From Candidatus Peribacteria bacterium RIFCSPHIGHO2_01_FULL_55_13 (lineage in GTDB: Bacteria; Patescibacteriota; Gracilibacteria; Peribacterales; Peribacteraceae): a stretch of 64,000 bases of DNA. Position numbers and translations under genes: made by a program. The notes under the pieces are model-generated. The model saw only the letters and a list, made by a program, of their open reading frames with translations. It searched no databases and was not told the DNA's origin. This document shows, one piece after another, positions 1,996 through 63,560 of this stretch. Position 1 is the first letter of the stretch. Each line of letters begins with the position of its first letter. The stretch lies in the NCBI GenBank assembly GCA_001788925.1, contig MFXS01000004.1, positions 50,464 through 114,463 of the forward strand, in the 5' to 3' direction.

Positions 1996-2064
1996 CGATT
2001 TGCCATTGGCCATTTGCGATTTGCCATTGAAAAATGGCAAGTGGTAAATGGCCAATGGCAAATC
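1996..2064. repeat. 7-nt-periodic repeat module, inverted pair (GCGATTT/GCCATTG units)
   Basis: Arms 1996-2028 and 2034-2064 are about 26/31 complementary; exactly fills gap between convergent stop codons at 1995 and 2066. Confidence 0.85.
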
Positions 2065-2065
2065 A

Positions 2066-3124
2066 TCAACAGACATTTCTTAATCGTTCACATGTCTCAT
2101 CCATCCATGCCAGCGCCTCCGGTCTTTTAATCAGGTGTTCGTGATCCCTGCGTAATTTCTCCAGATCATTCCGGGAGGGCAGAGAGGGCAGGGGATAACG
2201 CTTTCCGCTGATTTTCTCTGCAAGCTCCTGGATGCAAGAGATCCCAAGCATTGCGGCGAGAATGCCATGGAGCATGTTGGCTCCCCAGCGCTCCACCGGC
2301 GCGCCATGGAAGTATTCCATCGTTTGTTCCGGCGTTTTGAAATAATTCAAAAGCATTACGCCGCCGCTCATGCCCGAAAATCCCGCGATGCATTCCGAGC
2401 GCTTCTTTTCCGGGAGTACGGGGCATCGGTAGCCTTTCGAAAGCAGGATCTCATTGGCTTTGTCGAACGTGTCATACCGCCTCAGGCCTGCTTTACTCGA
2501 ATGGGAATTGCCCTCGGCGGGTTTGAGGGAAAGGTGTTCCTTGTTGCAGAAGATATCCCGGTTGATCACCGTGCAGTAACTGCTGCTGGCTTCATATTCC
2601 TTGCCCGAGATCGTGTATTTCCATCGTCGTGGCCGGAAACTGAGTGATGCAGTCTGGGGGTCGCTGCATTCCCGTTCGATCAGCGGCACGATCCCAGGAG
2701 AAAGCAGGAAAATATCATCGTCGCAGATCCAGCCGAGCCGGCGGTTGCGCGCAATAGAGTACAGAAACTCGTCGCACTTTGTCGCTGCGTAGAAGTTCAG
2801 GAATTTCTGGACTCTGGCCCCGGGAAAATCCGCAGGATCCAGTTTTCCGGAGCAGTCGAAGATCCAGATATCCGCCTTGTCGCCCATAAATTTTTTCGCG
2901 CAGTGATACCACACCGTCATCATCGGCGGCAGGATGTTCATGGTGCAGAGCGCGGGCTTGTCCGATTTCTCCAGAGCCGGCCGCTTCAGGTAGTACGCGA
3001 TCGTCGGGAGGGCCGTCCTCCGTGCGCTGAGCACCGAAAACCGCTTGAAGGAGTATTGCAGGAGCTTGTGATAGGGGCGTTTCATAGGGTTCTGGCTTGT
3101 AGCGTAGCGTTTTTGGGCCGACAC
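2066..3124 (-). CDS. hypothetical protein, possible glycosyltransferase
   Basis: 352-aa ORF in glycan locus; CDDDIF acidic motif resembles DxD; start could be M14 (3085). Confidence 0.5.
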   Translation of the reverse strand: MSAQKRYATSQNPMKRPYHKLLQYSFKRFSVLSARRTALPTIAYYLKRPALEKSDKPALCTMNILPPMMTVWYHCAKKFMGDKADIWIFDCSGKLDPADFPGARVQKFLNFYAATKCDEFLYSIARNRRLGWICDDDIFLLSPGIVPLIERECSDPQTASLSFRPRRWKYTISGKEYEASSSYCTVINRDIFCNKEHLSLKPAEGNSHSSKAGLRRYDTFDKANEILLSKGYRCPVLPEKKRSECIAGFSGMSGGVMLLNYFKTPEQTMEYFHGAPVERWGANMLHGILAAMLGISCIQELAEKISGKRYPLPSLPSRNDLEKLRRDHEHLIKRPEALAWMDETCERLRNVC

Positions 3125-3138
3125 TGCTCGCGGTTCCC

Positions 3139-4188
3139 ATGCTTACCGCCTACACGCGCCGGCTTCCGGGTGTCCCGCTCATACCGCTTCTGTATCCGAA
3201 CTTCGGAAAGGAGGAGCGTGATGCGATTCTCTTCATGAATAACGCGTTCCGGGAGATCCGAGAACCGTTCGTTGCGGTCACCGACGATCCCGCGAAAGCC
3301 GATGTCCTTCTCCTTGCTCATAACTTCTCCACGCTTCGGAAGCGACCAGAGTATGTTGCGGAATTCGAAGAGCTCAGCAAGAAACACGGAAAAAAGGTCG
3401 TCGTCTTTTGGCACGGTGATCGACCCGATCGGGTACCACTCTCCAATGTCATCGTCTTTCGGACGTCCATGTATGACCACTGCCGCCGCCCGGAAGAAAT
3501 CGCGATGCCGGCGTACAGCGAAGATCTGCTTCAGGGTGAAGCACTGCAGATTCGAAAAAAAGGGGAGAAGCCCGTTATCGGTTTTTGCGGATGGGCGGAC
3601 TATCGAAGCCTCAAAAACCGTTTCGGCACGTATGCGCTCAATGCTGCAGTTGATCTACGTGCGGCTTTGGGTCGGCGTCCTGTGCTTCGAAGCAAGCGCA
3701 AAGGGCTCAGCTTCCGTCGTGAGGCGATCCAGGCATTGGAGCATCAGAATCAGGTCACGACGAACTTCATTATCCGCAGCAGCTACTCCGGTCACAGCAA
3801 TACCATCGCCCTAGATCCCGAAACGGCGCGCAGGGAATACCGGGAGAATATGCTTCAGTCCGACCTGGCGCTTGTCGTCAAAGGCGACGGGAACTTCTCC
3901 TATCGCTTTTATGAAGCACTCAGTCTCGGGCGCATTCCGCTTCTCATCGATACCGACTGTGTGTTGCCGTGCAGCGATCGCCTCGATTACGACGCGTTCA
4001 TATTCCGCGTCCCATTCCAAAATATCGATCAGTTGCCGCAGCTGGTGGGGGAGTGGTGGGGCAGGCTCACCGATGAAGGATTCGCTGCCATGCAGAAAAA
4101 GGCGCGGGAGGCGTATGAGGAACATCTCTCCGTGCCGGCGTTTCTGCAATCTGTCCCAGAATTGATCACACAAACACCAAAAACTTGA
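3139..4188 (+). CDS. exostosin-like (GT47-type) glycosyltransferase
   Basis: C-terminal LVVKGDGNFSYRFYEALSLGRIPLLIDTD resembles exostosin-family signature. Confidence 0.55.
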   Translation: MLTAYTRRLPGVPLIPLLYPNFGKEERDAILFMNNAFREIREPFVAVTDDPAKADVLLLAHNFSTLRKRPEYVAEFEELSKKHGKKVVVFWHGDRPDRVPLSNVIVFRTSMYDHCRRPEEIAMPAYSEDLLQGEALQIRKKGEKPVIGFCGWADYRSLKNRFGTYALNAAVDLRAALGRRPVLRSKRKGLSFRREAIQALEHQNQVTTNFIIRSSYSGHSNTIALDPETARREYRENMLQSDLALVVKGDGNFSYRFYEALSLGRIPLLIDTDCVLPCSDRLDYDAFIFRVPFQNIDQLPQLVGEWWGRLTDEGFAAMQKKAREAYEEHLSVPAFLQSVPELITQTPKT

Positions 4189-4552
4189 AGAGCAGAAAGT
4201 TCCACGACGCCCCGAGCCCCATCGTGATGATCTTGCTCCACTCTTCGCCGAGTGCCGTGTGCTCCACGAGCACAAAAAGGAGGATATTGGTGGCTAGGAG
4301 ATTGAACATTTCGACCGAGAAATGCCGTTGAAGATGTTTCATAAAGTCATCCGGTTTTTTGAAAACAATGTATTTATGGAGCGTGAATGTGGTGATGTAA
4401 CTGAGCACGAACGCGACGACCGATGCGCCGATGTACCACGTGCCCCAGTGCAGGAGCAGGAGATACGTCGTGAGCTCCACAACCGCTCCGGTTCCACCAC
4501 TCAGGATATACAGGAGAATTTGTTTCGCATGATGGCGGAAGAGAGGATTCAC
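4166..4552 (-). CDS. GtrA family membrane protein
   Basis: 128 aa, 4 TM helices, SGGTGAVVELTTY and WNFLLFKFLVF motifs typical of GtrA. Confidence 0.75.
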   Translation of the reverse strand: MNPLFRHHAKQILLYILSGGTGAVVELTTYLLLLHWGTWYIGASVVAFVLSYITTFTLHKYIVFKKPDDFMKHLQRHFSVEMFNLLATNILLFVLVEHTALGEEWSKIITMGLGASWNFLLFKFLVFV

Positions 4553-4572
4553 CGGTGCATTCTGCGGTGCCG

Positions 4573-5541
4573 TTACGCGCTCTGCAACTCCACAATCTTC
4601 CCGGCAAGCGCATGTGCGTCTCCTGCCGGCACAAGATAGATGCCCTGGCCCTCTTTGTATCGTTCATGAATCGCCGGGGTATCGGCGGTGATCACGGGCA
4701 CGCGACACGCCATGCATTCGATGACCTTATGAGGGATCACGCGCTTCGTTTTCTCTCCGGTACCAAAAATACCAAGCGTGACATCCGCATCGCGGATGAT
4801 GGTCGGTAGATCTTTGAGCGGTGCGAAGGGCTTGAAGGTGACATTCTGGAGCTTCCATTCCGTCGCGAGAAGCCGCATCTCCCCGTACGTCTGCCCGCCG
4901 CCAATGAGGGTGAAATGAACCCGGGCATGCTTGTCTTGTAGGATTGCAGCCGCCTTCAGAATCACATCGATCCCTTGTAGCGGTATGTAACTTCCATAAA
5001 AGAGCACCTCAAACGTCTCTCCCCGCATATGCCGGTGATGCGGGTCCGGACGGAAATACTCCGGCGCTTCCAGATACACCACCGTGATATCCGCTGGGTG
5101 GATGCGGAAAGCGCGGCTGAAGTACTCCTTGTGCACCTTGGTATCGATCAGGATCTCATCAGCAAGATGGCAGTCGACGAAATCCGTGAGCCAGATGCAC
5201 CATGCTACGGGATTTCCTGGATGTACTTTCTTGCGGTCGGTGACGAGCGTGTCGTATGCGGAGATAAACGCATCAAAGACCAGAATTTTTCGGGGGAATC
5301 GAGTCAGTAACCACGCAAGCCACACCAGATGATGCCCGGGGAACGTGACCACGACGGTCTTGCAACTCTTTCTGTGCGTGCGGAATTGCCGCACAAGATC
5401 GCGGCATTTGGGTAGGAAGCCTTTTCGTGACGTGCGACATTCCACGATCGTTTTCCCCTTACGTTCATAATGCTTGCGCACGGTAAGGTGCCGCGGGGCA
5501 TGCAGGTCATGGAAACCGAACATGAGGACAGATGACTGCAT
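4573..5541 (-). CDS. glycosyltransferase, GT1/GT4-like
   Basis: C-terminal GT-B motif (IFGTGEKTKRVIPHKVIECMACRVPVITADT); start may be M7 (5523). Confidence 0.7.
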   Translation of the reverse strand: MQSSVLMFGFHDLHAPRHLTVRKHYERKGKTIVECRTSRKGFLPKCRDLVRQFRTHRKSCKTVVVTFPGHHLVWLAWLLTRFPRKILVFDAFISAYDTLVTDRKKVHPGNPVAWCIWLTDFVDCHLADEILIDTKVHKEYFSRAFRIHPADITVVYLEAPEYFRPDPHHRHMRGETFEVLFYGSYIPLQGIDVILKAAAILQDKHARVHFTLIGGGQTYGEMRLLATEWKLQNVTFKPFAPLKDLPTIIRDADVTLGIFGTGEKTKRVIPHKVIECMACRVPVITADTPAIHERYKEGQGIYLVPAGDAHALAGKIVELQSA

Positions 5542-5561
5542 CGCGGTTTATACTAGCATCC

Positions 5562-6716
5562 ATGCGCATCACCTACGTCACACATACGCGCTTTCCCACC
5601 GAAAAAGCTCATGGCTACCAGGTGGCTCAGGTGTGCCATGCCATGGCCGCCCTGGATCATGAAGTGACTCTTGTCACGCCGACCGTAGGAGTGGCACCGG
5701 CCGAGAGCGCTTTCCGTTTTTACGGAATCCCGGAGTCTTTCTCCATCTTGCGGCTCCAGCAGTTTGATGCGCTCAGCTCCTCATTCGTTCCGGGGCAGCT
5801 GGCGTTTGCGGTTGCCATGATTTCCTACCGATACGCGCTCAAAAAATATTTCGCCTCGTCCAGGGCGGATCTTCTGTATGTCCGTTCCCCCGTGCTTCTC
5901 CCCGCGCTTCTCGCAACAAAAATTCCGATCATTCTGGAACTGCATACGCTCCCAAGGTTTTTCCGTCAGCGCTTCGTGCGCATGACCAATCGGTGCCGTC
6001 TGGTTATTTGCCTGACGCGTGCGATGCGCGAAGAGCTGCTTTCGTGGGGGTGCGATGCCCGAAAAATCCTCGTAGAAGCAGACGGGGTGGATCACGAGCG
6101 GTTTTATAACCTGCCGCCCGCGAATCTCGCGAAGCAGGATTGGTCGCTGCCGCAGGACCGGACGGTCGTGGGATACATCGGATCCCTCGTTACGCGCGAT
6201 ACGCTGGAGAAGGGAGTGGCCGAACTGATCGACGCTGTCGCCTTACTCCACAAAGCAGGTTCGCCCGTGTTCTGCTGGATCGTCGGTGGCCCCGGCCCCT
6301 GGGTGAAGACCTATAAGCGCAGGGCGGAGGAACAAGGGCTCACGGCCAATGATATCCGTTTTCAGGGGATGATTCCTGTCCGCAAGGTGCCCTCGGCGAT
6401 CGCCGCATGCGATGTCTGCGTCTATCCCGCGCCGAAGAGCAAGCATCCTTACTTCCTCCGAGACACATCACCGCTCAAATTGTTCGAGTATCTGGCTGCC
6501 CGCAAACCGATCGTCTGCGCGGATCTTCCGCCTATTCGTGATGTCGTGAATGAGCGTGTCGTGCATTTCTGTGCACCCGGTGATCCTGCAAGCCTCGCCC
6601 AAGGCATCACTTCCGCCATCGAGTATCCGCTAAAAAGCGCCGAAGAACGCGCGAACATCGTTCATCGGCATTCGTGGAACCAGAGGATGGAAAGAATACT
6701 GACCGAAGCGATTTAA
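5562..6716 (+). CDS. glycosyltransferase family 4
   Basis: MRITYVTHTRFPTEKAHG N-terminus and C-terminal LKLFEYLAARKPIV (E-x7-E-like) motif; ORF track start 5532 trimmed. Confidence 0.75.
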   Translation: MRITYVTHTRFPTEKAHGYQVAQVCHAMAALDHEVTLVTPTVGVAPAESAFRFYGIPESFSILRLQQFDALSSSFVPGQLAFAVAMISYRYALKKYFASSRADLLYVRSPVLLPALLATKIPIILELHTLPRFFRQRFVRMTNRCRLVICLTRAMREELLSWGCDARKILVEADGVDHERFYNLPPANLAKQDWSLPQDRTVVGYIGSLVTRDTLEKGVAELIDAVALLHKAGSPVFCWIVGGPGPWVKTYKRRAEEQGLTANDIRFQGMIPVRKVPSAIAACDVCVYPAPKSKHPYFLRDTSPLKLFEYLAARKPIVCADLPPIRDVVNERVVHFCAPGDPASLAQGITSAIEYPLKSAEERANIVHRHSWNQRMERILTEAI

Positions 6717-6746
6717 GGGGAATAAGGGATGTAAGGGATAATCCCT

Positions 6747-7178
6747 TTGTCCTACAATCCTTCTATGTCCGATCTCAAGACCATCACCGCCCACGGCCGT
6801 ACGCTTGCGATCATCGGCAAGAAACCGAAAGTCGACGGCATCAAGTTCGTCACGGAACCCCAAGATCCTTTTCAGGTCGGCATTATGGAGCGCCCGAAGG
6901 GATACGAGGTGAAGCCGCATAGGCATCCCGACCGACCGATCACCGTGGAATCCGTCAGTGAATTTTTCTACGTAGAGAAGGGCAAAGTCCGTCTCACGGT
7001 CTTTGATGATCAGTGGAATCCCGTCGGCAAAGAGGAAATCGGAGCGGGGGAGTTTGCCCTGATCCTTGGCGGCGGGCATGGTGTGGAATTCCTTGAAGAC
7101 ACGCGGATGCATGAAGTGAAACAGGGCCCCTACCCCGGAGACTCCGGTTCGAAGGAATTCTTCCGAGCGATCGCATGA
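6747..7178 (+). CDS. cupin-fold protein, WxcM/FdtA-like sugar isomerase or epimerase candidate
   Basis: 143 aa, HRHPD and GGGHGVEF cupin-like motifs; sits in NDP-sugar locus. Confidence 0.5.
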   Translation: MSYNPSMSDLKTITAHGRTLAIIGKKPKVDGIKFVTEPQDPFQVGIMERPKGYEVKPHRHPDRPITVESVSEFFYVEKGKVRLTVFDDQWNPVGKEEIGAGEFALILGGGHGVEFLEDTRMHEVKQGPYPGDSGSKEFFRAIA

Positions 7179-7648
7179 CTCCCGAGGAAGTACAACAATT
7201 GGAAGCGTTGCTCAAAAAACTACGCACAGAAGATCTTCTGCCGCCGAAGACACCTCTTCCTGTCTGGAAAGCAATCCACGGTATCGTGCCGGTTCCGTGT
7301 GTTGAAGTGATTGTCACGACGACCGGCAAGGATTTTCTGCTGACGCATCGCAAGGACGCGGATTGGAACGGCTGGCATATTCCGGGCGGCTACCTGCACT
7401 ATCGCGAATCCATCGAAGATGGTTGCAAGCGGATCGCACGTGAAGAACTTGGCATCTCAGTGGTGTTCGAGAAAGTCATCGACACCTACATGTGGCCCGA
7501 TCATCCCTATAGCAGTGCTCTCTCGCTTGTGTGCATCTGTACAACGTCGGAAAAACCCGAGGTGGGGGAATTCTTCACAGAGATCCCAAAAGAAATCATT
7601 AAGCATCACGGGGATTTTTTGCAGAAATTCCTTTCGATGGAGGATTAA
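7175..7648 (+). CDS. NUDIX hydrolase (GDP-mannose mannosyl hydrolase-like)
   Basis: Nudix box GGYLHYRESIEDGCKRIAREELG; adjacent to gmd as in GDP-sugar loci. Confidence 0.75.
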   Translation: MTPEEVQQLEALLKKLRTEDLLPPKTPLPVWKAIHGIVPVPCVEVIVTTTGKDFLLTHRKDADWNGWHIPGGYLHYRESIEDGCKRIAREELGISVVFEKVIDTYMWPDHPYSSALSLVCICTTSEKPEVGEFFTEIPKEIIKHHGDFLQKFLSMED

Positions 7649-8622
7649 CATTTCCCCATCGCCTCTTTTTCAATCTTCATATCCGCCTCGACCATAATCT
7701 TGATCAGATCCTTGTACTTCACCTTCGGTTCATACCCGAAGGTTTTCTTCGCCTTGCTGTAATCTGCAATCAACGTGCTCGTCTTTCCAGGACGGAAGAA
7801 CTTCTGGTCGATGACCACGTGATCTTTCACCTTGAGTCCGAGCTGCGCGAATGTCTCCTCCAAAAATTGCTCTACGGATACTGCTTCTCCCGTGCCGATG
7901 ACAAAATCATCAGGCTCATCAAGCTGGAGAATGTTCCATGCTGCTTCCATGAATTCGCCTGCAAACCCAAAGTCGAGTTTGGCGCTTAAATCGCCGAGCC
8001 GGAGTTCCTTCTGAAGACCAAGCGAGATCCGTACAGCAGACTTTGTGATTTTGCGTGTGACATAGGAATCCGTCCTGCGCGGCGATTCATGGTTGAAGAA
8101 GATCGCCGTGGAAGCAAAGAGCTTGTGGACGTTGCGATAGTACTTTGTCAGCGACCACGCGTAGGTCTTCGCACAGGCGTAGGGGCTCTGGGGATTCAGT
8201 GGAGTCTCCTCGTTTTGCTTTACGGTATCCGTCAGACCGAACATGTTACTGGTCAGCGGTTGAAAGAAGCGGATGGTGGGATCCACGGCCCGGATGATCT
8301 CCAGTACTCTGCCCGGCGCACTTCCGGTGATATCAGAAGCGTAATCCGGCAGATCGTAACTCCAGCCGGCATGGTCCTGGTCCGCTTCGTTGTAGATTTC
8401 CTGAGGACGGACAGAACTGATGGCACGGAGAAGGGAGGTGGCATCGGCGAGATCACCGCGGTGCAGCGTGATCTTTTCGAGAAGATGGTCGATGTTTCGG
8501 GTGTTTCCTGTCGCCGAACGACGGAGAAGGCCGTGTACCTCGTACCCCTTACTGAGCAGGAACTCTGCAAGGTAGCTTCCGTCTTGGCCGGTTATGCCGA
8601 GGATGAGCGCTTTCTTCGTCAT
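7645..8622 (-). CDS. gmd: GDP-mannose 4,6-dehydratase
   Basis: LILGITGQDGSYLAEFLLSKGYEVHG, SPYACAK and FNHESPRR match Gmd closely; start set at MTKK (ATGA overlap with upstream gene). Confidence 0.93.
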   Translation of the reverse strand: MTKKALILGITGQDGSYLAEFLLSKGYEVHGLLRRSATGNTRNIDHLLEKITLHRGDLADATSLLRAISSVRPQEIYNEADQDHAGWSYDLPDYASDITGSAPGRVLEIIRAVDPTIRFFQPLTSNMFGLTDTVKQNEETPLNPQSPYACAKTYAWSLTKYYRNVHKLFASTAIFFNHESPRRTDSYVTRKITKSAVRISLGLQKELRLGDLSAKLDFGFAGEFMEAAWNILQLDEPDDFVIGTGEAVSVEQFLEETFAQLGLKVKDHVVIDQKFFRPGKTSTLIADYSKAKKTFGYEPKVKYKDLIKIMVEADMKIEKEAMGKC

Positions 8623-9884
8623 GGAACCACGCGGAATTGCGGGAGAGGGACGATAAACTGTCCGCCGCCCTTGCGCCACTGTTCTTCCCGCTTATAGAAC
8701 TCGTCGAAGAATGCGTAGGGCAGGACCAGGAAGTAATCGGGCTGGGCTTTTCTTGCTTCGTCTTCGGAAACGATCGGAATGCCGGTGCCGACAGTGAATT
8801 TCCCCCACTTTTCGGGACTGCGCTCCGCGGCGGCTTCGATCACCGTGTGATCCAGTCCGTAGTACTGCAGGATCGTATTGCCTTTCGTGGAGGCGCCATA
8901 GACCCACACACTTTTTCCTTTGGCGACGGCATCTTTTATAAACTCCACGCATTGGCGCTTGCTCTCCTCGATGCGCGCGAAGAATGCGGCATGCACTTCC
9001 CTGGAGTCGATGCCTTGTTCTTCCTTGCGGTACTGTGCCAAGCGCTCCGCAGCTCCCGCGGACATCACCGGGGGATGCCCATCCTTTAAGCCCGCATACA
9101 CACGGTAGCTGCCGCCGTTCACTTTGTTGTGCTCGATATCAATCAACGTGAGACCATTCTTCTCGAGCAGGAATTCGAGGGATTTGAGCGAGTAGAACTC
9201 CAGATGTTCATGGCAGATGTTGCCCACGTCATTGGTATCAAGCATGTTTTTCAGGCACATCAGCTGCGCGATGAAGACGCCGTCGTCCTCCAGGCAGAGT
9301 GCCGCATCGCGAATGAACTGGTTGGGATCTTCCATGTCATAAAACATGCCGATAGCAGTGATCACCTTTGCCTTCTTCGCGCCTGGGATGGCCTTCTCAT
9401 AATTTTCCTTCGTCCAAAAATCGTTGATGAAATAGTCGAGACCTTTCCTGCCTTCCTCAGCGAGGTTCGACGCGGGTTCCACGCCCACTTTGACGATGCC
9501 GGGCACGACATAGGTTCGAAGCATCGTGCCGTCGTTGCTGCCGATATCCATCACGATGTCTCCCGCCTTCAAATTCACGCGTTGCTCAATGCTTTCGGTG
9601 ATATTCCGAAGCGCTTTCTTCATCGTGTCGGTCACGCCGGAGCGATACCAGTAAAAGCGAGCATAGAGCAGCTCCTGAGGAGCGGTATCGCGCAGCTGTA
9701 CGAGCGAGCAGTGTTCGCACATCACCATTTCAAGCGGTGCCTTGATTCCTTGATCCGTCTTCTCCACGAAATCCGACACATACAGATCGCCCAGCGTATA
9801 CAGCGGGCTGATCTCCTTGGAACCGCATACGCGGCAGCGGGAGATCGTTGTATAGGCGGTGGTGTTTCCTTGTGCGGGATTCAT
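8619..9884 (-). CDS. NDP-hexose C-methyltransferase (TylCIII/EvaC-like)
   Basis: N-terminal Zn-ribbon CRVCGS...CEHCSLVQL, SAM motif VMDIGSNDG, long C-methyltransferase C-terminal domain. Confidence 0.8.
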   Translation of the reverse strand: MNPAQGNTTAYTTISRCRVCGSKEISPLYTLGDLYVSDFVEKTDQGIKAPLEMVMCEHCSLVQLRDTAPQELLYARFYWYRSGVTDTMKKALRNITESIEQRVNLKAGDIVMDIGSNDGTMLRTYVVPGIVKVGVEPASNLAEEGRKGLDYFINDFWTKENYEKAIPGAKKAKVITAIGMFYDMEDPNQFIRDAALCLEDDGVFIAQLMCLKNMLDTNDVGNICHEHLEFYSLKSLEFLLEKNGLTLIDIEHNKVNGGSYRVYAGLKDGHPPVMSAGAAERLAQYRKEEQGIDSREVHAAFFARIEESKRQCVEFIKDAVAKGKSVWVYGASTKGNTILQYYGLDHTVIEAAAERSPEKWGKFTVGTGIPIVSEDEARKAQPDYFLVLPYAFFDEFYKREEQWRKGGGQFIVPLPQFRVVP

Positions 9885-10612
9885 GAAGATGGCGTTCTCC
9901 CGCGCATTCTAATGCGGATTACCCGCCACGCATAGTTCACTGCGAGGCGGAAAAAGACGCGGAGGCTACCGTCAGTTTTGGAGACTCCCGCCTGCCGAAG
10001 CCCGTACCGGTACGGCACTTCGACGATGCTCACATTCTTTTCAAGACACGCATACACCCACTCCACGAAGTATTCACCGAAACCGTCGGGAGAGAGAGGT
10101 ACTTTTTGGAGTGTTTCTCTCCGCGCGGCGGCGAAGCCGGATGTCCAGTCCCAGAATGAAAAATGCCCCAGCACTACTCGGGTGTAGAAGTTGAAGACAT
10201 AGCTTAGAAACGCCCGGAAGCGGTGCCTGGTGTCCAAGCCACCCTTCACATAGCGCGATCCCACCGCTACTTCGTACTCATCCAGTCTCTCGACCAGTTT
10301 CACAATATCTTCCGGCGGGATGCCAAGATCACAATCCAGCCACACCACATATTTCCCTTTTGCCGCCTTCGTGCCATCCGAAAGTGCAGAGGCCAATCCG
10401 CGCTTGTCCATGCGTCGCATCAGACGGCAGCGGGGATTACCCAGTTTCTCCACCACTTCCCAGGTGCGGTCTGGGCTGTTGTCATCCACCACGATAATCT
10501 CAAGCAGGCCAGTGCCCAATGCGGAAGCCGTGCGCTCGATGGCGTCTTTGATATTGTCCCGCTCGTTATACGAGGGAATGACGACGGAAATGCTGGAAGG
10601 TTCAGGAATCAT
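9881..10612 (-). CDS. glycosyltransferase family 2 (polyprenol-phosphate sugar synthase-like)
   Basis: SVVIPSYNERDNI, VVDDNSPDRT and LDCDL motifs. Confidence 0.8.
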   Translation of the reverse strand: MIPEPSSISVVIPSYNERDNIKDAIERTASALGTGLLEIIVVDDNSPDRTWEVVEKLGNPRCRLMRRMDKRGLASALSDGTKAAKGKYVVWLDCDLGIPPEDIVKLVERLDEYEVAVGSRYVKGGLDTRHRFRAFLSYVFNFYTRVVLGHFSFWDWTSGFAAARRETLQKVPLSPDGFGEYFVEWVYACLEKNVSIVEVPYRYGLRQAGVSKTDGSLRVFFRLAVNYAWRVIRIRMRGRTPSS

Positions 10613-10628
10613 GATGGGCGGAAGGGGA

Positions 10629-11741
10629 TTATCGATTCTGAGCGATGTCGCGGACCGCCTGCGTTACCGTGGAGAGTTGCTCCTCGGTGAGCGCCAGCCC
10701 GGAAGGAAGGTAGAATCCGCGCTTTGCGATATCTTCGCTTACCGGGAACGATTCCTTCGCCTGCGGATGCGTGCTCAGGAACGGTTGGCTGTGGCAGGGA
10801 TAGAAAAAATCCCGGGTATCCACTCCGCGTTCCGCAAGCTTCTTTCGCAGCGTGTCTTTGGACATTCCGAAGGCATCTTCGACGAGCACAGCGTACATCC
10901 AATAGACGTTGGTTGCGTAGTCCTTTGTTATGGGCAGTCGCAGGCCGGGTACCTTCGAGAGCTCTTCCTTGTAGCGTCGTCCCATCCATTGCTTCTTCTC
11001 CACGTACTCTTTTATATGCGGCATCTGGCCAACCCCCAGGGCCGCCTGCAGGTTGGTCATGCGGTAGTTGAATCCCAAATCGGTATGCACGAAGCGCTTC
11101 TCGGGACTATGCGCCAGGTCACGCAGGCCTTTCGCACGCGCAGCAAGCGCATCATCATTCGTCACGACCATGCCGCCCTCGCCGGTGGTGATCAGCTTGT
11201 TGGCATAGAAACTGAAACAGTTCATCACACCCATCGATCCGCAGAGTCTTCCTTTGTACGTTGCCCCGTGCACTTCGGCCGCATCCTCCACCACTGCCAG
11301 GTTGTGTTTTTTCGCCGTTTCTAAAATCGGGTCCATATCCGCGCTGTGACCGTAGATATGCACCGGAAGAATAGCTTTCGTGCGCGGCGTTATAGCCTTT
11401 GCCATGAGGTCCGGGTCCATCGCGAAGGTCTCGGGGTCAACGTCCACAAAGACAGGCGTCGCACCGGTATACATCACGGCCGTGACCGTCGAAATCATCG
11501 TGAAGTCCGGCACGATGACCTCGTCTCCGGGGCCGATGCGAAGGCTCGCAAGCGCAAGATGCAATGCTGCAGTCCCGTTCATCACTGCGACCCCGTGTTT
11601 CATACCCAAAAAATCCGCAAATTCCCGTTCGAACTGGGTGATACATGGACCTGCCGAAGAAACCCATCCCGTTTCCAGTGCTTCGATCACTGCCTGCCTG
11701 GATTCAGGCGCGATGATCGGTTCGTTGACGGGGATTTTCAT
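10629..11741 (-). CDS. DegT/DnrJ/EryC1/StrS sugar aminotransferase (perosamine-synthase-like)
   Basis: 370 aa; typical N-terminus and PLP-lysine region (FSFYANKLITTGEGG). Confidence 0.9.
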   Translation of the reverse strand: MKIPVNEPIIAPESRQAVIEALETGWVSSAGPCITQFEREFADFLGMKHGVAVMNGTAALHLALASLRIGPGDEVIVPDFTMISTVTAVMYTGATPVFVDVDPETFAMDPDLMAKAITPRTKAILPVHIYGHSADMDPILETAKKHNLAVVEDAAEVHGATYKGRLCGSMGVMNCFSFYANKLITTGEGGMVVTNDDALAARAKGLRDLAHSPEKRFVHTDLGFNYRMTNLQAALGVGQMPHIKEYVEKKQWMGRRYKEELSKVPGLRLPITKDYATNVYWMYAVLVEDAFGMSKDTLRKKLAERGVDTRDFFYPCHSQPFLSTHPQAKESFPVSEDIAKRGFYLPSGLALTEEQLSTVTQAVRDIAQNR

Positions 11742-11782
11742 GCGGAACTGTGGAAGCAGGTGATCTCCTGGCTATTGTGTTT

Positions 11783-12796: not shown

Positions 12797-12804
12797 GTTT
12801 AATA

Positions 12805-12830
12805 TGAGGCAAGCCAGTAGGCTTGCCTCA
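12805..12830 (-). terminator. GC-rich hairpin (TGAGGCAAGCC-AGTA-GGCTTGCCTCA), no clear U-tract
   Basis: Perfect 11-bp stem directly 3' of small ORF 12848-13144. Confidence 0.3.
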
Positions 12831-12847
12831 CGATCTCTGGAAATCTG

Positions 12848-52027: not shown

Positions 52028-52038
52028 ACGGATCAGTT

Positions 52039-53142: not shown

Positions 53143-53213
53143 GCGGGGAGTGAACTGTAAGTGAAAATACGTCCGGTCGGAATTGTGAACATGCTATATT
53201 GTTCTCTAGTTTC

Positions 53214-53891: not shown

Positions 53892-53951
53892 ACTGTTTTC
53901 CAGGGAACATTTCTGCGCTACAATGGGCCCCTCCTCCTTTTTCTTCTTTTT

Positions 53952-54668
53952 ATGCAGATCCGCCGCTCTCTTCTGGTTCTTTCCTTGGTCGTTCTTGCAG
54001 CCTGTCTCCCCGCGAAGAACGCCGCAAATCCTAATGGAAGCGCGATGTCGCAGGGTGCCGCCGCACGTTCCGTACAGCCTTTGACGGAAGACGGCGTCAC
54101 GATGAAAGGTGGAATGATGCTCACGATCAAAGACGGACAGATGTCGCGGATGCAAGAGGATCTGGAGTATGACGACGGCACGACGGTGAAAACCGACGGC
54201 ACGGTAATACTTTCGGACGGTACCACGCTGGTCCTCCCCGAAGGCATGATGATCACGGTGGATGGCCGCCTCCAGATGCGCGAGGAGTTTGCGGTGCAGG
54301 GAAATCCTGTGATTACGGTTCCTCCGACATCGTCAGGCACGGCATCCACCGGCACACAGGCTGCCGCAGAGGCGACATATCAGGATTACACAGCCGATGT
54401 CCTCATGAACGGCGAAACAAAGGTGCTCTTCTTCCATGCCTCCTGGTGTCCAGAATGCAAGAAGGCAAATGCGTATCTGCAATCCATTCTGCCGTCCGGG
54501 GAGTATTCCCGGTCGGTTTACAAAGTGGACTACGACACCGCCAAGGAGCTCAAGGCGAAGTACAATGTGGTGTACCAGCACACGTTTGTGGTGGTGGATG
54601 GAAACGGCGTGAAGCTTTCCTCGGTGCAGGGCCCCACGGAGGTTCAGCTTGAGGCGTTGCTGAAGTAA
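53952..54668 (+). CDS. thioredoxin-domain lipoprotein
   Basis: Lipobox VLAAC; WCPEC active site. Confidence 0.7.
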   Translation: MQIRRSLLVLSLVVLAACLPAKNAANPNGSAMSQGAAARSVQPLTEDGVTMKGGMMLTIKDGQMSRMQEDLEYDDGTTVKTDGTVILSDGTTLVLPEGMMITVDGRLQMREEFAVQGNPVITVPPTSSGTASTGTQAAAEATYQDYTADVLMNGETKVLFFHASWCPECKKANAYLQSILPSGEYSRSVYKVDYDTAKELKAKYNVVYQHTFVVVDGNGVKLSSVQGPTEVQLEALLK

Positions 54669-54736
54669 GAAAAGGCAGAAAGGGTAGGAAAGGCAAAACA
54701 TGTTTTGCCTTTCCTGCCATTTCCCCCATTCCTGCC
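54669..54736. repeat. 7-nt-periodic repeat module, imperfect inverted pair (AAAGGCA/GAAAGGG units)
   Basis: Centre GGCAAAACA/TGTTTTGCC; between two plus-strand genes. Confidence 0.7.
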
Positions 54737-54749
54737 CTATCATCCATGC

Positions 54750-56624
54750 ATGTCTACACTTCCGACCGCACTCGTTCTCTTTCTCGCAGGAATGCTCACT
54801 ATCTTTTTGCCCTGCATTCTGCCGCTTCTGCCGATCGTGCTTGGGGTTAGCGTCGCCGGACGTAGCCGATGGCGGCCGCTTCTCACTGTCCTTGGGATGG
54901 TCGTGAGCTTTGTGGGGTTCACGTTTCTCCTTACGCTGGTCCTGAGCCAGTTCGTTGCATTTGCCGACGTGCTCCGGATTTCCACGTACTACATCCTGCT
55001 GCTCTTCGGCGTGGGATTCCTTACAAACAACCGCACACTGCAGCTTCTGGGTGCCGTGATGGGAGGATTTTTCTTTGAACGCTACGGATGGATCTCGGTC
55101 ACGATCGCGCAAACCGTCGGAGCGACCGCCATGGAACTCGGGTCCAAGATCGCGACGAAACTCCAGCAGTGGGGAGGGGAGATACAGCAGGAAACAGGCG
55201 AGAAGCTCGGACGTGAAAATCCGCTCGCAGCATTCATCATCGGTCTCACACTCGGCCTCGTATGGGTGCCGTGTGCCGGTCCCGCGTTAGGCTTCGCTTT
55301 CACGCTCGTCCGGGAGGAGCCCGGGCCGCGTGCAGCATTTTTGCTTTCGATGTACGGCCTCGGGACCGCAGTTCCTCTGCTGATCGTCGGCTACGGCGGA
55401 CAGGCGATCACCCGGCGCGTACGGGCCCTCAACCACTATAGCGGGCTTATCAAGCGGATTGCCGGCGTAGTACTCATCCTCACGGCCGTGGGACTGCAGT
55501 ATGGAGGCCTGATGCGGCTGCAGACGTATCTGGTGGAGAAAGTAGGGTACGGGGATTTCGGGAGCCGGGTGGAGGAGAAGTTATTTGGGGAGGATTCAGA
55601 AGAGACAACGTCATCCTCCAGCTTTGAAAATCCGTTTACTGCGAAGCTTCCTGTCATTTCCTCTGCCCCGGAGTTCTCCGGTCTTGCTCCTTGGCATAAC
55701 AGTGATCCATTCACGATGGAGAGTCTTCGTGGAAAAGTTGTGCTCGTCGATTTCTGGACGTACTCGTGCATCAACTGCATCCGTACGCTCCCCTACATTC
55801 AGGGCTACTGGGAAACATTTAAGGATACGGGGAAATTCGTCCTCATCGGCGTTCACACGCCTGAGTTTATTTTCGAGAAGGATCAAAAAAATGTCGCTGA
55901 TGCCATCAAGCGCCACGGACTCACGTACACAGTGGCCCAGGACAATGATTTTGGAACGTGGAATGCCTTCGAGAACCGCTACTGGCCGGCGAAGTACCTG
56001 ATCGATGTGGAAGGGAATGTCCGCTACACCCATTTTGGGGAAGGAGACTATGAGGAGACGGAGGAGGCGATTAAAAGTTTGTTGCGCGAAGCAGGTGTGA
56101 CAGTAGGGGGTCCAGAAGATTCAAACCCTTCGACAGGGCTCAGGACAGGCGATTCAGAGGATGTAAAAGAGTATTACGGTAAGCAGACCCCGGAGATCTA
56201 TCTTGGGCCCAGAAGCTGGAGTTCTTTTGGCAACGGAGGAATGTTTCCCACCGAGGATGCCGTTGTCTACACCGCGCCCGAAGAAATGGAGCTTCATGAA
56301 TACACTCTCGATGGCACCTGGCAGATCGTGGATGATGAACAGAGAGTCCTTCGATCTGAGACCGGAGAGATCCGCATGAAGTTTTTGGGAGGGGAGATCA
56401 ATCTGGTGATGGGAGTAGAGGGAATGGATGCCGCACTGCTCACCACAGGCTCTCTATCGCTACCAATGGTGCAGGTCTTCGTTGATGGAAAGCTGGAGAA
56501 GACGTTTACCATCGACCGTTACGATCTCTTCGTGCTTTGGAAAGGGGAATACGGCGAACATGAAATAATCCTGAAGATCGCCGGGGCGGGAGCGGAGGGA
56601 TATGCGTTTACCTTTGGGCAATAA
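54750..56624 (+). CDS. DipZ-like protein: CcdA/DsbD membrane domain fused to thioredoxin-like and C-terminal domains
   Basis: CcdA-type helices with LPCILPLLP and VPCAGP motifs; redoxin domain WTYSCINC. Confidence 0.8.
   Translation: MSTLPTALVLFLAGMLTIFLPCILPLLPIVLGVSVAGRSRWRPLLTVLGMVVSFVGFTFLLTLVLSQFVAFADVLRISTYYILLLFGVGFLTNNRTLQLLGAVMGGFFFERYGWISVTIAQTVGATAMELGSKIATKLQQWGGEIQQETGEKLGRENPLAAFIIGLTLGLVWVPCAGPALGFAFTLVREEPGPRAAFLLSMYGLGTAVPLLIVGYGGQAITRRVRALNHYSGLIKRIAGVVLILTAVGLQYGGLMRLQTYLVEKVGYGDFGSRVEEKLFGEDSEETTSSSSFENPFTAKLPVISSAPEFSGLAPWHNSDPFTMESLRGKVVLVDFWTYSCINCIRTLPYIQGYWETFKDTGKFVLIGVHTPEFIFEKDQKNVADAIKRHGLTYTVAQDNDFGTWNAFENRYWPAKYLIDVEGNVRYTHFGEGDYEETEEAIKSLLREAGVTVGGPEDSNPSTGLRTGDSEDVKEYYGKQTPEIYLGPRSWSSFGNGGMFPTEDAVVYTAPEEMELHEYTLDGTWQIVDDEQRVLRSETGEIRMKFLGGEINLVMGVEGMDAALLTTGSLSLPMVQVFVDGKLEKTFTIDRYDLFVLWKGEYGEHEIILKIAGAGAEGYAFTFGQ
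56126..56150. repeat. 25-nt element CCCTTCGACAGGGCTCAGGACAGGC flanked by 8-nt direct repeats
   Basis: Flanks GATTCAAA and GATTCAGA; element plus one flank is 33 nt, read as NPSTGLRTGDS. Confidence 0.8.
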
Positions 56625-58322: not shown

Positions 58323-58357
58323 AAAAAGGAAAAATGAAAAAGGATAAAGGAAAAATT
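58323..58357. repeat. 7-nt-periodic repeat module (GGAAAAA/TGAAAAA/GGATAAA units) abutting the glnA start
   Basis: Inverted partner at 58560-58599. Confidence 0.85.
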
Positions 58358-58559: not shown

Positions 58560-58599
58560 TTTATTTTTCCATTATCCTTTTTCATTTTTCCTTTCTTTC
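58560..58599. repeat. 7-nt-periodic repeat module abutting the TrmB-like gene start (inverted copy of 58323-58357)
   Basis: TTATCCTTTTTCATTTTTCCTTT is shared by both leaders in gene sense. Confidence 0.85.
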
Positions 58600-61364: not shown

Positions 61365-61389
61365 CCCTTCGACAGGCTCAGGACAGGCT
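61365..61389. repeat. 25-nt element copy (CCCTTCGACAGGCTCAGGACAGGCT), intergenic
   Basis: Flanked by GTAGGG direct repeats (61359-61364 and 61390-61395). Confidence 0.75.
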
Positions 61390-61514
61390 GTAGGGTGTTG
61401 GATGGGTTTCGCAGGGAACGAGATTTTGGCTTATGTAAGACAAAAAAATGATGCATAGGAGATTCAGGTGCCGCGATTCGGACATCGCAAACATGGTGCC
61501 ACACACTGGGCGCG

Positions 61515-62471: not shown

Positions 62472-62480
62472 TCACCTTGG

Positions 62481-62503
62481 GAGACGCAACAGAGTTGCGT
62501 CTC
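62481..62503 (+). terminator. GAGACG...CGTCTC hairpin 3' of gene
   Basis: GAGACGCAAC-AGA-GTTGCGTCTC; no clear U-tract. Confidence 0.35.
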
Positions 62504-62515
62504 TACGGATGCCGT

Positions 62516-63058
62516 TTACCTTCCTATTAACCGCAGGAATTCCTCCCGTGTCTTTTCATCTTTCTTGATCAATCCCTTCACGCAGCTGGTCATGGCTTTG
62601 GAATGCTGCTTCTCCACGCCCCGCATCATCATGCAGAGGTGCTCGGCTTCTACGACGACCGCGATGCCCTTGGGCTTCAGCACCGATTCCAGCGCGTCGC
62701 AGATTTGCTGGGTGAGGCGTTCCTGGGTCTGGAGCCTGCGGGCGAACATGTCGATGATGCGCGGGATCTTGCTGAGGCCGATGATGTGCTTATTCGGGAC
62801 GTAGCCCACATGCACCTTGCCGATGAAGGGCAGGAGATGATGCTCGCACAGGCTGTAGCATTCGATATCGGTGACGATGACCATTCCATCGGTCTCACTG
62901 GGAAAAAGCGCGTCGTTCACAATCGTTTCCAGATCTTCCCCGTAGCCTTTTGTCAGAAATTGAAAGGCGTCTGCTGCCCGCTTGGGGGTTTTCAGAAGCC
63001 CTTTGCGTTTCGGGTCTTCGCCGATGGCCTTGAGAAGATCATGGAACAGTTTTTCCAT
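62516..63058 (-). CDS. folE: GTP cyclohydrolase I (FolE type)
   Basis: [30 protein letters not shown] and HLCMMMRGV motifs; start set at MEKLF. Confidence 0.9.
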
Positions 63059-63065
63059 GGCTCCA

Positions 63066-63560
63066 TCATAAAGCGATGTCCGTGAGGACACACTCCTGTT
63101 CTAGGGTTTTTTCGAGCAAATATTCCCAGGATTGCTTTATGACGGGGTGCTTGAATTGCGGGTCGATCAGTTCGCAGAGGGGCTCGAGGACAAAACGGCG
63201 TTCGTGCATGCGAGGGTGGGGCAGGACGATTTGCGATTTACTATTGATGATTTGCGATTTGTTTCCATGCAATAAGAGATCGAGATCAATTGTTCTGGGG
63301 CCGAAACGGAAGGGCGGAGCTTTGCCCAGCGATTGCTCGATGCTTTGCAAGATACGATAGATATCTTCAGAGGATTTCTGGGTATCACAGGTTGCAACGG
63401 TATTCAGGAAATCATTCTGATCCTCCACTTCGCGGGCGGCCGTGCGGTAGACGGAGGAGAATTCGATATCAGGAAAATGTTCCCGGAGCAAAGCGGCTGC
63501 TTTTTGAAGATTCATTTCAGGATCGATATTGCTGCCGAGGCCGAGGAAGATCTGTGTCAT
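63066..63560 (-). CDS. folK: 2-amino-4-hydroxy-6-hydroxymethyldihydropterin pyrophosphokinase
   Basis: [19 protein letters not shown] and [12 protein letters not shown] motifs. Confidence 0.88.
63226..63262. repeat. 7-nt-periodic repeat module in CDS (xxxGATT units)
   Basis: Read as [12 protein letters not shown] between the conserved DLDLLL and PHPRMHER. Confidence 0.85.

Follow-up and report, generated by a model that had tools for sequence, protein, structure and literature searches.

The window analysed here is a 64,000-nt stretch of contig MFXS01000004.1 (positions 50,464 to 114,463, forward strand) from Candidatus Peribacteria bacterium RIFCSPHIGHO2_01_FULL_55_13 (assembly GCA_001788925.1), which lives in groundwater and is uncultured. 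Scattered through it are short tandem arrays of 7-nt units. They lie in the spacers between genes and, in frame, inside genes for conserved enzymes such as GuaA. A typical module is ~32 nt long and is made up of ~4.5 tandem copies of a 7-nt, rarely 8-nt, unit. Some modules are singlets; others are paired as inverted doublets and fold into hairpins of 25-32 bp. The favoured explanation, held with about as much doubt as confidence, is a clade-wide family of miniature dispersed repeats that is spread by non-reciprocal copying and filtered by selection.

The analysis covers these 64 kb of the source genome and, for relatives, ~20-kb slices picked via GuaA synteny. Comparison loci carry L-numbers (L001, L002, L036, etc.), and some of them (L061, L054, etc.) are viral contigs. 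Genes were mapped from the calls supplied with the matching contig and from a codon-model map. Gene starts are predictions, and translation and RNA structure are inferred from sequence.

Period 7 accounts for 45 of the 74 Tandem Repeats Finder rows in the window, mostly with 4.3-4.9 copies. A strict self-match scan over periods 2-21 returned 17 period-7 arrays and none in Markov-3 shuffles; outside period 7, it found only one period-8 array and a period-14 harmonic. At a laxer self-match threshold, there are 31 period-7 arrays against 0.05 expected from Markov-3 shuffles, and lags 7 and 14 show elevated base autocorrelation. The period-7 excess over shuffled sequence proposed by the first-pass annotation of the window is therefore borne out. 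That annotation also placed the arrays at 35 or more loci, about one per 2 kb, which is consistent with the ~30-35 loci that remain when the arms of each hairpin are counted together and a few short, GC-rich rows of two copies are left out. Each unit type that it listed was found again in its place, including the 8-nt ATGGCTAA hairpin at 15175-15266. The 31 arrays comprise 18 unit types. Units are A/T-rich in a window of 54% G+C; across the clade, units average 37% GC and genomes 51%.

The closest loci found by GuaA retrieval belong to Candidatus Peribacteria (Peregrinibacteria, within the candidate phyla radiation, CPR), at 78-84% protein identity. Exact-protein matching recovered the same locus in an NCBI metagenome-assembled genome (MAG; GCA_001788995.1), an ENA MEGAHIT contig, and two JGI contigs. 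Window positions 34281-56107 are 100% identical to the independent ENA MEGAHIT contig, and "indels" relative to the remaining contigs are N runs only. Nine near-identical contigs show N-gaps, clustered single-nucleotide polymorphisms (SNPs) outside arrays, one SNP within an array, and no length changes. Beyond that SNP, no event of array polymorphism or movement was seen among these strain-level contigs. The arrays are genuine genomic DNA and are not hypervariable contingency loci.

That the arrays arose in assembly or polishing, or are ordinary coding sequence with chance periodicity, is next to negligible as an explanation. One NCBI-scaffold N-gap beside a hairpin was seen, and no support for an artefact was found. 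Artefact, a concern raised when the arrays were first described, is dismissed because assemblies from different pipelines agree and no array contains an indel. Arrays are also found in dozens of MAGs from unrelated studies, and open reading frames (ORFs) stay in frame. Ordinary coding sequence, the other concern, is contradicted by orthologues that carry unrelated peptides at the same sites, with no synonymous drift of a shared peptide. In the comparison of L044 (15381-15419) with window 54737-54834, the NCBI scaffold has an N run right after the 54668-54733 hairpin, and the ENA contig is continuous. Arrays may break short-read assemblies.

The window and 41 Peribacteria loci (711 kb) contain 168 arrays. 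Lengths cluster sharply at 31-32 nt, the mode (55 of 168), and arrays longer than 37 nt are very few. A frequent form in the window is exactly 32 nt long, with four AATT-NNN units closed by a fifth AATT. Free slippage would be expected to give a broad range of lengths, not a peak as sharp as this one. Same-unit neighbours at most 150 nt apart are inverted in 26 cases and direct in none; seven more close pairs carry unrelated units. The purine-rich arm is 5' in 21 of the 26 inverted pairs (20 of 22 in another count), and this holds on both strands. Facing arrays had been described at first as hairpins, and the 11 window hairpins tested are indeed predicted to fold, at -23 to -53.4 kcal/mol (z -3.2 to -11.2). 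The minority of arrays with 8-nt units (ATGGCTAA, CCGGCAAA, GGGAATAC) occupies the same kinds of site with a similar total length. Examples are window 15175-15266, GuaA site 1 in L041, and the site orthologous to 41440 in L039 and L002.

Microsatellite dynamics alone would make the arrays by in-place polymerase slippage in a preferred 7-nt register, with no copying between loci. Heptanucleotides are the commonest long class of simple sequence repeat (SSR) in many bacteria; the general excess has been attributed to polymerase slippage (Mrazek et al. 2007), and a polymerase-footprint explanation has been proposed. A period that is mostly 7 and in a minority 8 resembles a physical ruler and not a fixed sequence, and L004 has a single AATTGAG unit where L002 has AATTGAG/AATGGAG arrays. 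Slippage as the whole explanation is distinctly unlikely, however. The length peak is sharp and non-geometric, strains lack length polymorphism, and single-unit steps would shift the frame in coding copies. Inverted partners are left unexplained. Identical imperfect modules and genome-specific families require transfer between loci, and new arrays at GuaA site 1 match the family of their own genome and not a locally derived unit.

Between genes, a module usually makes up the whole spacer in the contig gene calls and the codon-model map. Two stop-to-stop spacers are of this kind. The first, at 1997-2064, is an inverted doublet (ATTTGCC x4.4 and AAATGGC x4.6 with a 4-nt loop; -53.4 kcal/mol, z -11.2) that is the entire spacer between convergent genes 628-1995(+) and 2066-3085(-). 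The second, at 48680-48777, is a degenerate inverted doublet of CCAAANN units that fills the spacer of convergent genes. A singlet of AATGGCA/AATGGTA at 26325-26355 lies in the spacer of the convergent rplT (25945-26289) and 26357-27130(-). Three plus-strand arrays of 32 nt are stop-to-start spacers. The AATTAGC array at 32002-32033 bridges the genes for flavodoxin and the 2-oxoacid:acceptor oxidoreductase alpha subunit (ATG at 32036), and the flavodoxin stop TAG is inside it. The AATTGCT array at 33804-33835 includes the alpha-subunit stop TAA and ends 3 nt before the next ATG (33839). The AATTGAA array at 35904-35935 alone fills the gap between the trmD stop TAA and the following ATG (35936). 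On the minus strand, the inverted AATKCGG doublet at 52487-52563 forms a complete stop-hairpin-start spacer between the RNase T stop and the TTG start of def. The palindromic doublet of GGCAGAA-type units at 54668-54733 (plus strand) begins at the stop codon of 53952-54668.

Further modules, several of them close to gene starts, are as follows. The palindromic AAAGCAN/NTGCTTT doublet at 37476-37541 spans the whole 50-nt start-to-start spacer of divergent genes 37001-37483(-) and 37534-38280(+), so both genes have a pyrimidine-rich array before the ATG. The inverted GGAATTC/GGAATGC doublet at 17782-17855 lies between the divergent RF-1-domain gene 17353-17775(-) and an ORF for a TPR protein. 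A 208-nt divergent promoter region is bracketed by AAAAAGG at 58323-58355 (minus strand) and its inverted partner TTTTTCC at 58564-58594 (plus strand). The former abuts the first ATG of the glnA ORF and is pyrimidine-rich in the sense direction; the latter ends 5 nt before the ATG (58600) of a TrmB-like regulator. A singlet of AATTGAA/AATTGAG at 14923-14962, also pyrimidine-rich in sense, lies between two minus-strand genes just upstream of the 13144-14904 start. The inverted doublet of AATTGCAGATTGAAAATT and its complement at 36941-36992 (-24.8 kcal/mol, z -6.9) again lies between two minus-strand genes. An inverted AATTAGN/NCTAATT doublet at 16133-16213 is directly upstream of the Peptidase_M50 gene 15456-16127(-). 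In the 8-nt doublet at 15175-15266, ATGGCTAA faces TTAGCCAT across an 18-nt loop (-38 kcal/mol, z -7.9).

No Shine-Dalgarno-like motif is visible upstream of the 24 called genes at 34.3-56.1 kb of the window. Leaders in this region are short and pyrimidine-rich (e.g., ...CTTTGCC-ATG). Several TATAAT-like boxes lie just 10-25 nt upstream of starts, and the arrangement suggests that leaders are very short or absent. Of 14 arrays close to a start, 12 are pyrimidine-rich in sense when read directly. A consensus scan of 34281-54280 for canonical intrinsic terminators gave 14 hits versus 22 in shuffled sequence, with none at intergenic 3' ends. The array stems (25-32 bp, A/T-rich) are unlike the short GC-rich stem and T-tract of intrinsic terminators, and array hairpins sit in slots where relatives have GC-rich hairpins. 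Scans of the window with Rfam 15 at the gathering threshold and for tRNA returned just one tRNA (tRNA-Ser). A sigma-70 -35 role for TTGACA/TTGAAA units was rejected: a scanner flags the arrays, yet many abut starts, lie in ORFs, or face the wrong way.

Arrays might be mainly selected cis-acting RNA elements, with long A/U-rich hairpins serving as terminators, RNase III sites, or mRNA-end protectors, pyrimidine-rich arrays as S1-type translation leaders, and the coding copies collateral. Hairpins fill 3' ends and intercistronic spacers, GC-rich hairpins substitute for them in relatives, and canonical terminators are lacking. The 5'-purine/3'-pyrimidine polarity yields an A-tract-stem-U-tract layout on both strands, start-proximal arrays are pyrimidine-rich where Shine-Dalgarno sites are missing, and some arrays are better conserved than their flanks. 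On the phage-like contig L061, cassettes occupy most gene junctions, with arms bracketing a GC mini-hairpin and then a U-tract. Even so, such selection as the main explanation is rather unlikely. About half of the arrays are in ORFs and full hairpins lie in a membrane-protein gene, where a terminator or cleavage site would be harmful. The 7-nt periodicity, lone arms in enzyme loops, and genome-specific families are unexplained, and close relatives dispense with whole hairpins. Among 22 hairpins, there is no excess of G-U-compatible mismatches (26 G-T versus 23 A-C, pooled over transcription directions), a count that speaks neither for nor against selection on the RNA.

About 23 arrays, roughly half of the total, are in frame within ORFs. 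Their hosts are guaA (three arrays), trmD, and the genes for the 2-oxoacid:acceptor oxidoreductase alpha subunit, an ADP-forming acyl-CoA ligase, a WecG-type transferase, UDP-GlcNAc 2-epimerase, HPPK, and a Wzy_C-type membrane protein. The first-pass annotation held that arrays inside genes are translated. In-frame placement is confirmed for the three arrays in the GuaA ORF and for others in conserved enzymes; some arrays, e.g., 35904-35935 and 17787-17855, are more likely untranslated stop-to-start spacers.

The acyl-CoA ligase gene 28386-30470(-) has three in-frame arrays, all read on the minus strand: AATTGAG of 32 nt at 28758-28789 (peptide FSILNSPFSI), a short GATTGCA array at 29468-29490, and a degenerate GATTTNC array at 30096-30127. 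In the last, two predicted TAA codons have become CAA and AAA. The remaining enzyme arrays, HPPK apart, are on the plus strand. Oxidoreductase alpha contains a perfect GGAAAGT x4.3 at 32587-32616 (peptide ESGKWKVES) and AATGAGC/AATTAGC at 33475-33507, where a predicted TGA is TTA and the orthologous site in L036 is AGCTGTC x4. The trmD gene (35213-35905) carries AAAGNAA at 35439-35471, and the WecG-type glycosyltransferase gene carries AATTCGG of 32 nt at 37904-37935. The epimerase gene (40986-42332) contains a perfect AATGGAA x4.9 at 41440-41473, where each of the five alignable relatives has a different array, and AAAGGAA at 41703-41733. In the HPPK gene 63066-63560(-), a CAAATCG-type array lies in frame at 63227-63261 (minus strand), and the protein is ~13 aa longer than the Pfam model across the matched span. 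ORF 17789-19672 holds, on its plus strand, an inverted doublet of GCAAAAA/GGATAAA and its complement (18199-18266) and two short pyrimidine-rich arrays, ATTTTCC x2.1 and CAATTTT x2.7 (18965-19025).

The Wzy_C-family gene contains whole hairpins on the plus strand. A split inverted doublet at 42546-42674 has its arms ~60 nt apart across conserved coding sequence; one arm, GGAAAGT, encodes EWKTESGKWKV, and the other, ACTTTCC, encodes FHFPLSTFH. An in-frame AATTGAA/TTCAATT doublet at 43600-43667 is read as LKIENVKLKKEEFSIFNFQFSI, with GTA in the third unit in place of a predicted TGA. The guaA gene (44281-46107) carries three plus-strand arrays: AAAAAGN at 44624-44648 in the GATase domain, AATTCGG at 45240-45270 (GuaA site 1; peptide MRNSEFGIRN), and AATTGAA at 45548-45581 (GuaA site 2; peptide LKIENGKLKI). 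Predicted GuaA peptides include ...NSNELKIENGKLKIEFQH... and ...EEMRNSEFGIRNEV.... Comparison with solved GMP synthases places the GuaA arrays in segments that vary. Site 2 opens a clade-specific insertion of ~90 residues (residues ~417-505), which lies between GPGLGVRIL and the C-terminal dimerisation region as judged against the best-matching solved bacterial GMP synthase. GuaA length, ~600 aa, is kept across the Peribacteria.

Stop codons are avoided in these copies. In 18 of the 23 coding arrays, the unit has no stop trinucleotide in the sense direction. Perfect arrays would place five in-frame stops, and all five are replaced (GGA, GTA, TTA, CAA, AAA). Direct reading of the units confirmed that GGAAAGT, GGAAAAT, GGAATTC, and ATGGCAA are stop-free, and the altered third unit of AATTGAA arrays, where TGA is expected, was verified at 43600 and 45548. 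It had also been pointed out that 7 and 3 are coprime, so that a tandem heptamer shows the same seven codons in every frame. The property is true and acts only as a survival filter for ORF copies; there is no sign that it is the cause of period 7, and rare 8-nt arrays occur at like sites. Purine-rich arms encode hydrophilic peptides (ELKIENGKLKI, ESGKWKVES); the peptides of pyrimidine-rich arms are hydrophobic (FSIFNFQFSI, FHFPLSTFH) and are found mostly in the membrane protein. A coiled-coil role was rejected, as the 21-nt (7-aa) supra-period does not place hydrophobics at heptad positions a/d and the peptides are just ~10 aa long. The modules occupy the few tolerant places, which are stop-to-start spacers and variable protein surface loops. 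They extend ORF calls and blur start-codon prediction in CPR genomes.

Relatives show how the same sites change. At GuaA site 1, 13 relatives are array-free with a conserved GLKMEEGWML. The window and at least seven further lineages each have a different array there, with units AATTCGG, GCCAAAA, AGCCAAA, GCAGAGA, CGGAATC, GCTCAAA, and the 8-mer CCGGCAAA. The net size change is ~12-33 nt, the old sequence is partly replaced, and the new arrays bear the family typical of their own genome. At GuaA site 2, most of the 22 spanning relatives have a period-7 array, with differing units. The epimerase, Wzy, trmD, and WecG sites show the same pattern of one site and different units in six syntenic relatives, with flanks 66-88% identical.

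Both arms of the two Wzy hairpins co-vary between relatives. The pair is GGAAAGT/ACTTTCC in the window, GAGAATT/AATTCTC in L001, AAGAATG/CATTCTT in L036 and L039, and TTGCAAC/GTTGCAA in L002 and L003. Across 36 genomes, every array-bearing lineage has its own complementary pair. Pairwise comparison of orthologous arrays is bimodal: they are either 84-100% identical, with flanks at 70-84%, or 26-65% identical. The second class represents wholesale unit replacement. The earlier view that the modules are lineage-specific insertions was not upheld. Most sites are occupied across Peribacteria that are 60-88% identical, and it is the unit that is swapped, in both arms in concert.

Whole hairpins can also be missing. 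The 52487-52563 hairpin has other units in L002 and is lacking in L004, where stop and start are linked by TAATTGAGAATG. The 54668-54733 hairpin is likewise absent in L004, and L036 has a GC-rich hairpin instead. The 48680-48777 slot holds an array hairpin in L001 and conventional GC-rich hairpins in L004 and L002. L005, L009, and L017 have no arrays in ~22 kb.

Clean presence or absence of whole hairpins, as at 52487-52563 and 54668-54733, is what non-autonomous elements related to REPINs (hairpin-forming doublets of repetitive extragenic palindromes, REPs) or to miniature inverted-repeat transposable elements (MITEs) might leave. Here, the doublet would be moved by a transposase encoded elsewhere (e.g., a REP-associated tyrosine transposase, RAYT, of the Y1 HUH type), and singlets would be decayed halves. 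Hairpin doublets with singlets, genome-specific families, high density, and multi-copy identical modules and cassettes all suit this explanation. It is nonetheless unlikely, if possible. There are many unit families per genome (18 types in 31 arrays over 64 kb), and neither conserved termini, a GTAG-type head, nor target duplications occur. MITEs have terminal inverted repeats, target-site duplications, and fixed boundaries; neither duplications nor fixed ends are seen at the presence/absence junctions compared with relatives. Inserts at GuaA site 1 vary over ~12-33 nt and partly replace older sequence. Repeated arrival at exact codon-level sites in many lineages is hard to explain by transposition. 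A tblastn search of 1.36 Mb found no match to IS200 TnpA, a weak negative given an approximate query and sparsely sampled genomes.

Modules recur within a genome. Non-neighbouring arrays have an identical unit in 5.7% of pairs within a genome and 1.4% between genomes; with at most one mismatch, the figures are 16% and 7.8%. In L036, AGCT-NNN units recur at no fewer than five sites and AAGAATG units at four, and L039 has AAGAATG at three or more. The imperfect module AATGCGG-AATTCGG-AATTCGG-AATT occurs in the window at 17787, at 45240, and on the opposite strand at 52532. A 30-mer with an odd AATGTAA unit is identical within 35904-35935 and at 43600-43629. Identical imperfect modules at unrelated loci are also present in L001, L039, L023, and several viral contigs. 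Such modules do not come from independent in-place slippage.

Arrays are also carried by phage-like DNA. A scan of viral contigs for (AATTGAA)x3 returned 59 contigs. Phage-like contigs L061, L054, L079, L058, L087, and L093 have 9-14 arrays per 10 kb, with multiple units and lengths of ~30-33 nt. L061 (IMG/VR UViG_3300018475_000788, 1-10465; 58% GC) encodes Gp15-like, scaffold, and portal proteins and has a ~115-nt cassette at most gene junctions. The cassette is composed of a purine arm (CAATGGA x4.5), a 52-nt spacer with the GC mini-hairpin GTCGCCGAAGGCGAC and then a T-tract, and a complementary pyrimidine arm. AATTGAC units in L061 include the TTGACA hexamer. Whatever makes or uses the arrays works on phage DNA too. 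This is compatible with a process at the level of replication or repair, or with use by the host expression machinery.

Occurrence on phage DNA argues against a role as uptake signals. DNA uptake sequences (DUS) in Neisseria and uptake signal sequences (USS) in Pasteurellaceae are the comparators for this idea, in which the arrays would accumulate by biased uptake and recombination. The likeness lies in a density of ~1 per 1.5-2 kb, inverted pairs at gene ends, in-frame copies in variable segments, and lineage "dialects". An uptake-signal origin is nevertheless highly improbable. A single uptake receptor does not fit many unrelated units per genome; DUS and USS have one conserved 9-12-nt motif per genome, and the window has 18 unit types in 31 arrays. 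Arrays are denser still in phage-like contigs, which need no uptake signals, and periodicity and fixed length are unexplained.

A literature search found no paper linking heptamer repeats with Peribacteria or CPR. The first-pass annotation regarded the periodic architecture as an undescribed family. No description of such a family in Peribacteria or CPR was found; pervasive heptanucleotide tandem repeats are already known as a kind. The STRRs (short repetitive elements, tandemly repeated) reported from cyanobacteria are said to be heptanucleotides. Like the present arrays, STRRs are tandem 7-nt units at many dispersed loci, with lineage-specific units. They belong to another phylum, have other units, vary in length, and are mostly intergenic. 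No module of constant ~32-nt size is reported for them, nor are systematic inverted doublets or many coding copies in frame. Canonical STRR units in heterocystous cyanobacteria are CCCCAGT, TTGGTCA, and CAACAGT, and none of these is among the array units listed for the window and its relatives. Head-to-tail 7-nt units far above chance are shared with STRRs and SSRs (31 arrays versus 0.05), but a copy number that varies by slippage is not: the mode is 31-32 nt and strain-level indels are absent. An STRR hairpin reportedly lies in helix P12 of RNase P RNA and extends it without destroying the gene product, and closely related strains are said to carry unrelated heptamers at that same site. By analogy, this heptamer swapping is the closest precedent for the turnover seen here.

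In-frame palindromic DNA is also reported from Rickettsia, where Rickettsia palindromic elements (RPEs) are said to sit in conserved genes at peptide-tolerant positions. The 42546-42674 and 43600-43667 hairpins in the Wzy_C gene and the single arms in GuaA and other enzymes resemble them. RPEs are 100-150 bp, have a family consensus, are non-periodic, and are lineage-specific insertions; Peribacteria modules are ~32 nt (doublets ~70 nt), heptamer-periodic, and at long-lived sites. The distinction is drawn on size, periodicity, and host organism. The comparison with selfish in-frame DNA, drawn when the arrays were first noticed, holds in part: the modules are tolerated, behave like self-propagating DNA, and are read through in frame, but they are not simple lineage-specific insertions.

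Borg within-gene repeat units are reportedly multiples of 3 nt. Borg repeats differ from Peribacteria arrays in their variable array length and lack of inverted pairing. Borg repeats are described as pervasive, intergenic and in frame, fast-evolving, and independently arising (Schoelmerich et al. 2023, PMC9879509). An intergenic excess of 7-nt repeats with some inverted pairs is known from Xanthomonas (GGGAATC) and Nostoc (GGGGAYT), and two Xanthomonas species share the gene pairs that flank the repeats, whose sequence and length vary (Rehm et al. 2015, PMC4692102). The 7-nt repeats, inverted pairs, and shared gene slots with variable sequence are alike in the Peribacteria. However, Xanthomonas and Nostoc each have a single G-rich unit, for which G-quadruplex formation is proposed, and only 7-11% of their copies overlap ORFs, whereas Peribacteria arrays have many mostly A/T-rich units, a narrow length, and about half of their copies in ORFs. 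In marine Beggiatoaceae, TAACTGA occurs in 2-6 copies, often just upstream of starts poor in Shine-Dalgarno sites, and binding of S1 or Csp has been proposed (MacGregor 2015, PMC4679880). That is a single unit across phyla, inverted in 1 of 170 sets; Peribacteria arrays have no single shared unit. REPINs are inverted REP doublets that form hairpins (Bertels & Rainey 2011, PMC3116915). With hairpin-forming inverted doublets (26 versus 0 direct), singlets, genome-specific families, and high abundance in common, REPINs are by analogy the closest in anatomy. They differ in being extragenic (~23 arrays here are in frame in ORFs), conserved in sequence, and without 7-nt periodicity. Each REPIN family is linked to a RAYT gene; none is known for the Peribacteria arrays. 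In no known system compared do a constant module size, many units per genome, systematic inverted doublets, and numerous copies read in frame in core enzymes occur together.

Under the favoured explanation of copied and selected miniature repeats, modules would spread and be homogenised by non-reciprocal copying between arrays. The likeliest route would be short-patch gene conversion or replication template-switching, aided by register-tolerant periodic microhomology; a dedicated enzyme is an alternative copying agent. Tandem periodicity gives microhomology in every register, which favours template switching or conversion. Quasi-palindrome correction is a known way of keeping two arms complementary. 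Selection would retain copies that keep the frame, lack stops, and encode tolerable peptides. Intergenic doublets have probably been recruited as hairpins for RNA 3' ends or processing, and pyrimidine-rich arms probably as leaders in a genome without Shine-Dalgarno sites.

Several points weigh against this explanation. No copying engine was found in the material compared, nor were target-site duplications or conserved ends. Within-genome unit sharing is only 2-4 times the between-genome level. The change from one unit to an unrelated one is not ordinary homology-dependent gene conversion, because neither flanks nor units match. Strain-level contigs show no movement or length change (one SNP, no indels), and activity is deduced from comparisons. 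Site conservation, arrays that are better conserved than their flanks, and ordered phage cassettes could equally mean selected function. The 7-nt register and the ~32-nt length are left without explanation.

Unit replacement without flanking homology keeps a dedicated "writer" or a REPIN-like transposase mechanism alive. In the stronger form of the first idea, Peribacteria and their phages would possess a dedicated system that writes or homes ~32-nt arrays in a 7-nt register and overwrites sites with the active family, with the arrays serving as genome punctuation. Candidates would be a templated polymerase or reverse-transcriptase-like activity or a structure-specific nuclease-recombinase. 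The punctuation would consist of hairpins for double-stranded RNA processing or termination and of leaders for translation without Shine-Dalgarno sites. This proposal is possible but rather unlikely. If true, a dedicated writer would be a new class of genome-wide homogenisation that reaches the coding sequence of housekeeping enzymes.

If copying and selection are instead the right explanation, a CPR class would carry hundreds of copies per ~1.2-Mb genome. Three unusual traits would be combined: a fixed size with a 7-nt register, survival in core-enzyme frames, and concerted overwriting at conserved sites. The arrays would then offer a natural system for the dominance of heptanucleotides among long bacterial SSRs, for the copying of very short dispersed repeats without recognisable transposase signals, and for new protein loops created by selfish DNA. 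They may also mark transcript boundaries where canonical terminators and Shine-Dalgarno sites are lacking.

A second dispersed element of ~22 nt has the consensus CCCTTCGAC-NN-GCTCAGG(R)CAGG and occurs in the window at 61365-61390. It is found elsewhere in L001 (6167-6181), L002 (1536-1550), L033 (11308-11322), L037 (4917-4931), L010, L015, L018, and L036. Copies lie inside arrays in L001 (GuaA site 2), L002 (a Wzy hairpin arm), and L037 (GuaA site 1), and array-embedded copies are predicted to be read as DPSTGSGG and AHSTSSGQ. In L033, the element is at the GuaA site-2 position (AHSTGSGQ). Mobile mini-elements of 21-27 nt in Nostoc reportedly also lie inside tandem heptamer arrays; the ~22-nt CCCTTCGAC-NN-GCTCAGG element resembles them in this placement in L001, L002, and L037 and differs in sequence and phylum.

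GC skew changes from negative to positive at ~31.5-32 kb of the window, and there the prevailing gene strand switches from minus to plus. The divergent pair 30487-31473(-) and 31542-32021(+) probably marks the vicinity of a replication origin. Two nearby genes, 17353-17775 and 21943-22869, encode RF-1-domain proteins. They comprise a full release factor, PCRF domain included, and a short protein of 140 aa that has the RF-1 domain only (ArfB/peptidyl-tRNA-hydrolase-like). The tRNA-Ser(CGA) is at 20288-20378. A sugar cluster of glycosyltransferase and sugar-modification genes at 2066-14904 (12.8 kb) has no arrays versus ~6 expected at the mean density of the window, and arrays flank it on both sides. 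The C-methyltransferase of this cluster has its best matches in Peregrinibacteria, and homologues in Kiritimatiellales, Elusimicrobia, Aminicenantes, and Nanoarchaeota MAGs are 65-76% identical. The array-free cluster may be a horizontally exchanged or highly constrained island.

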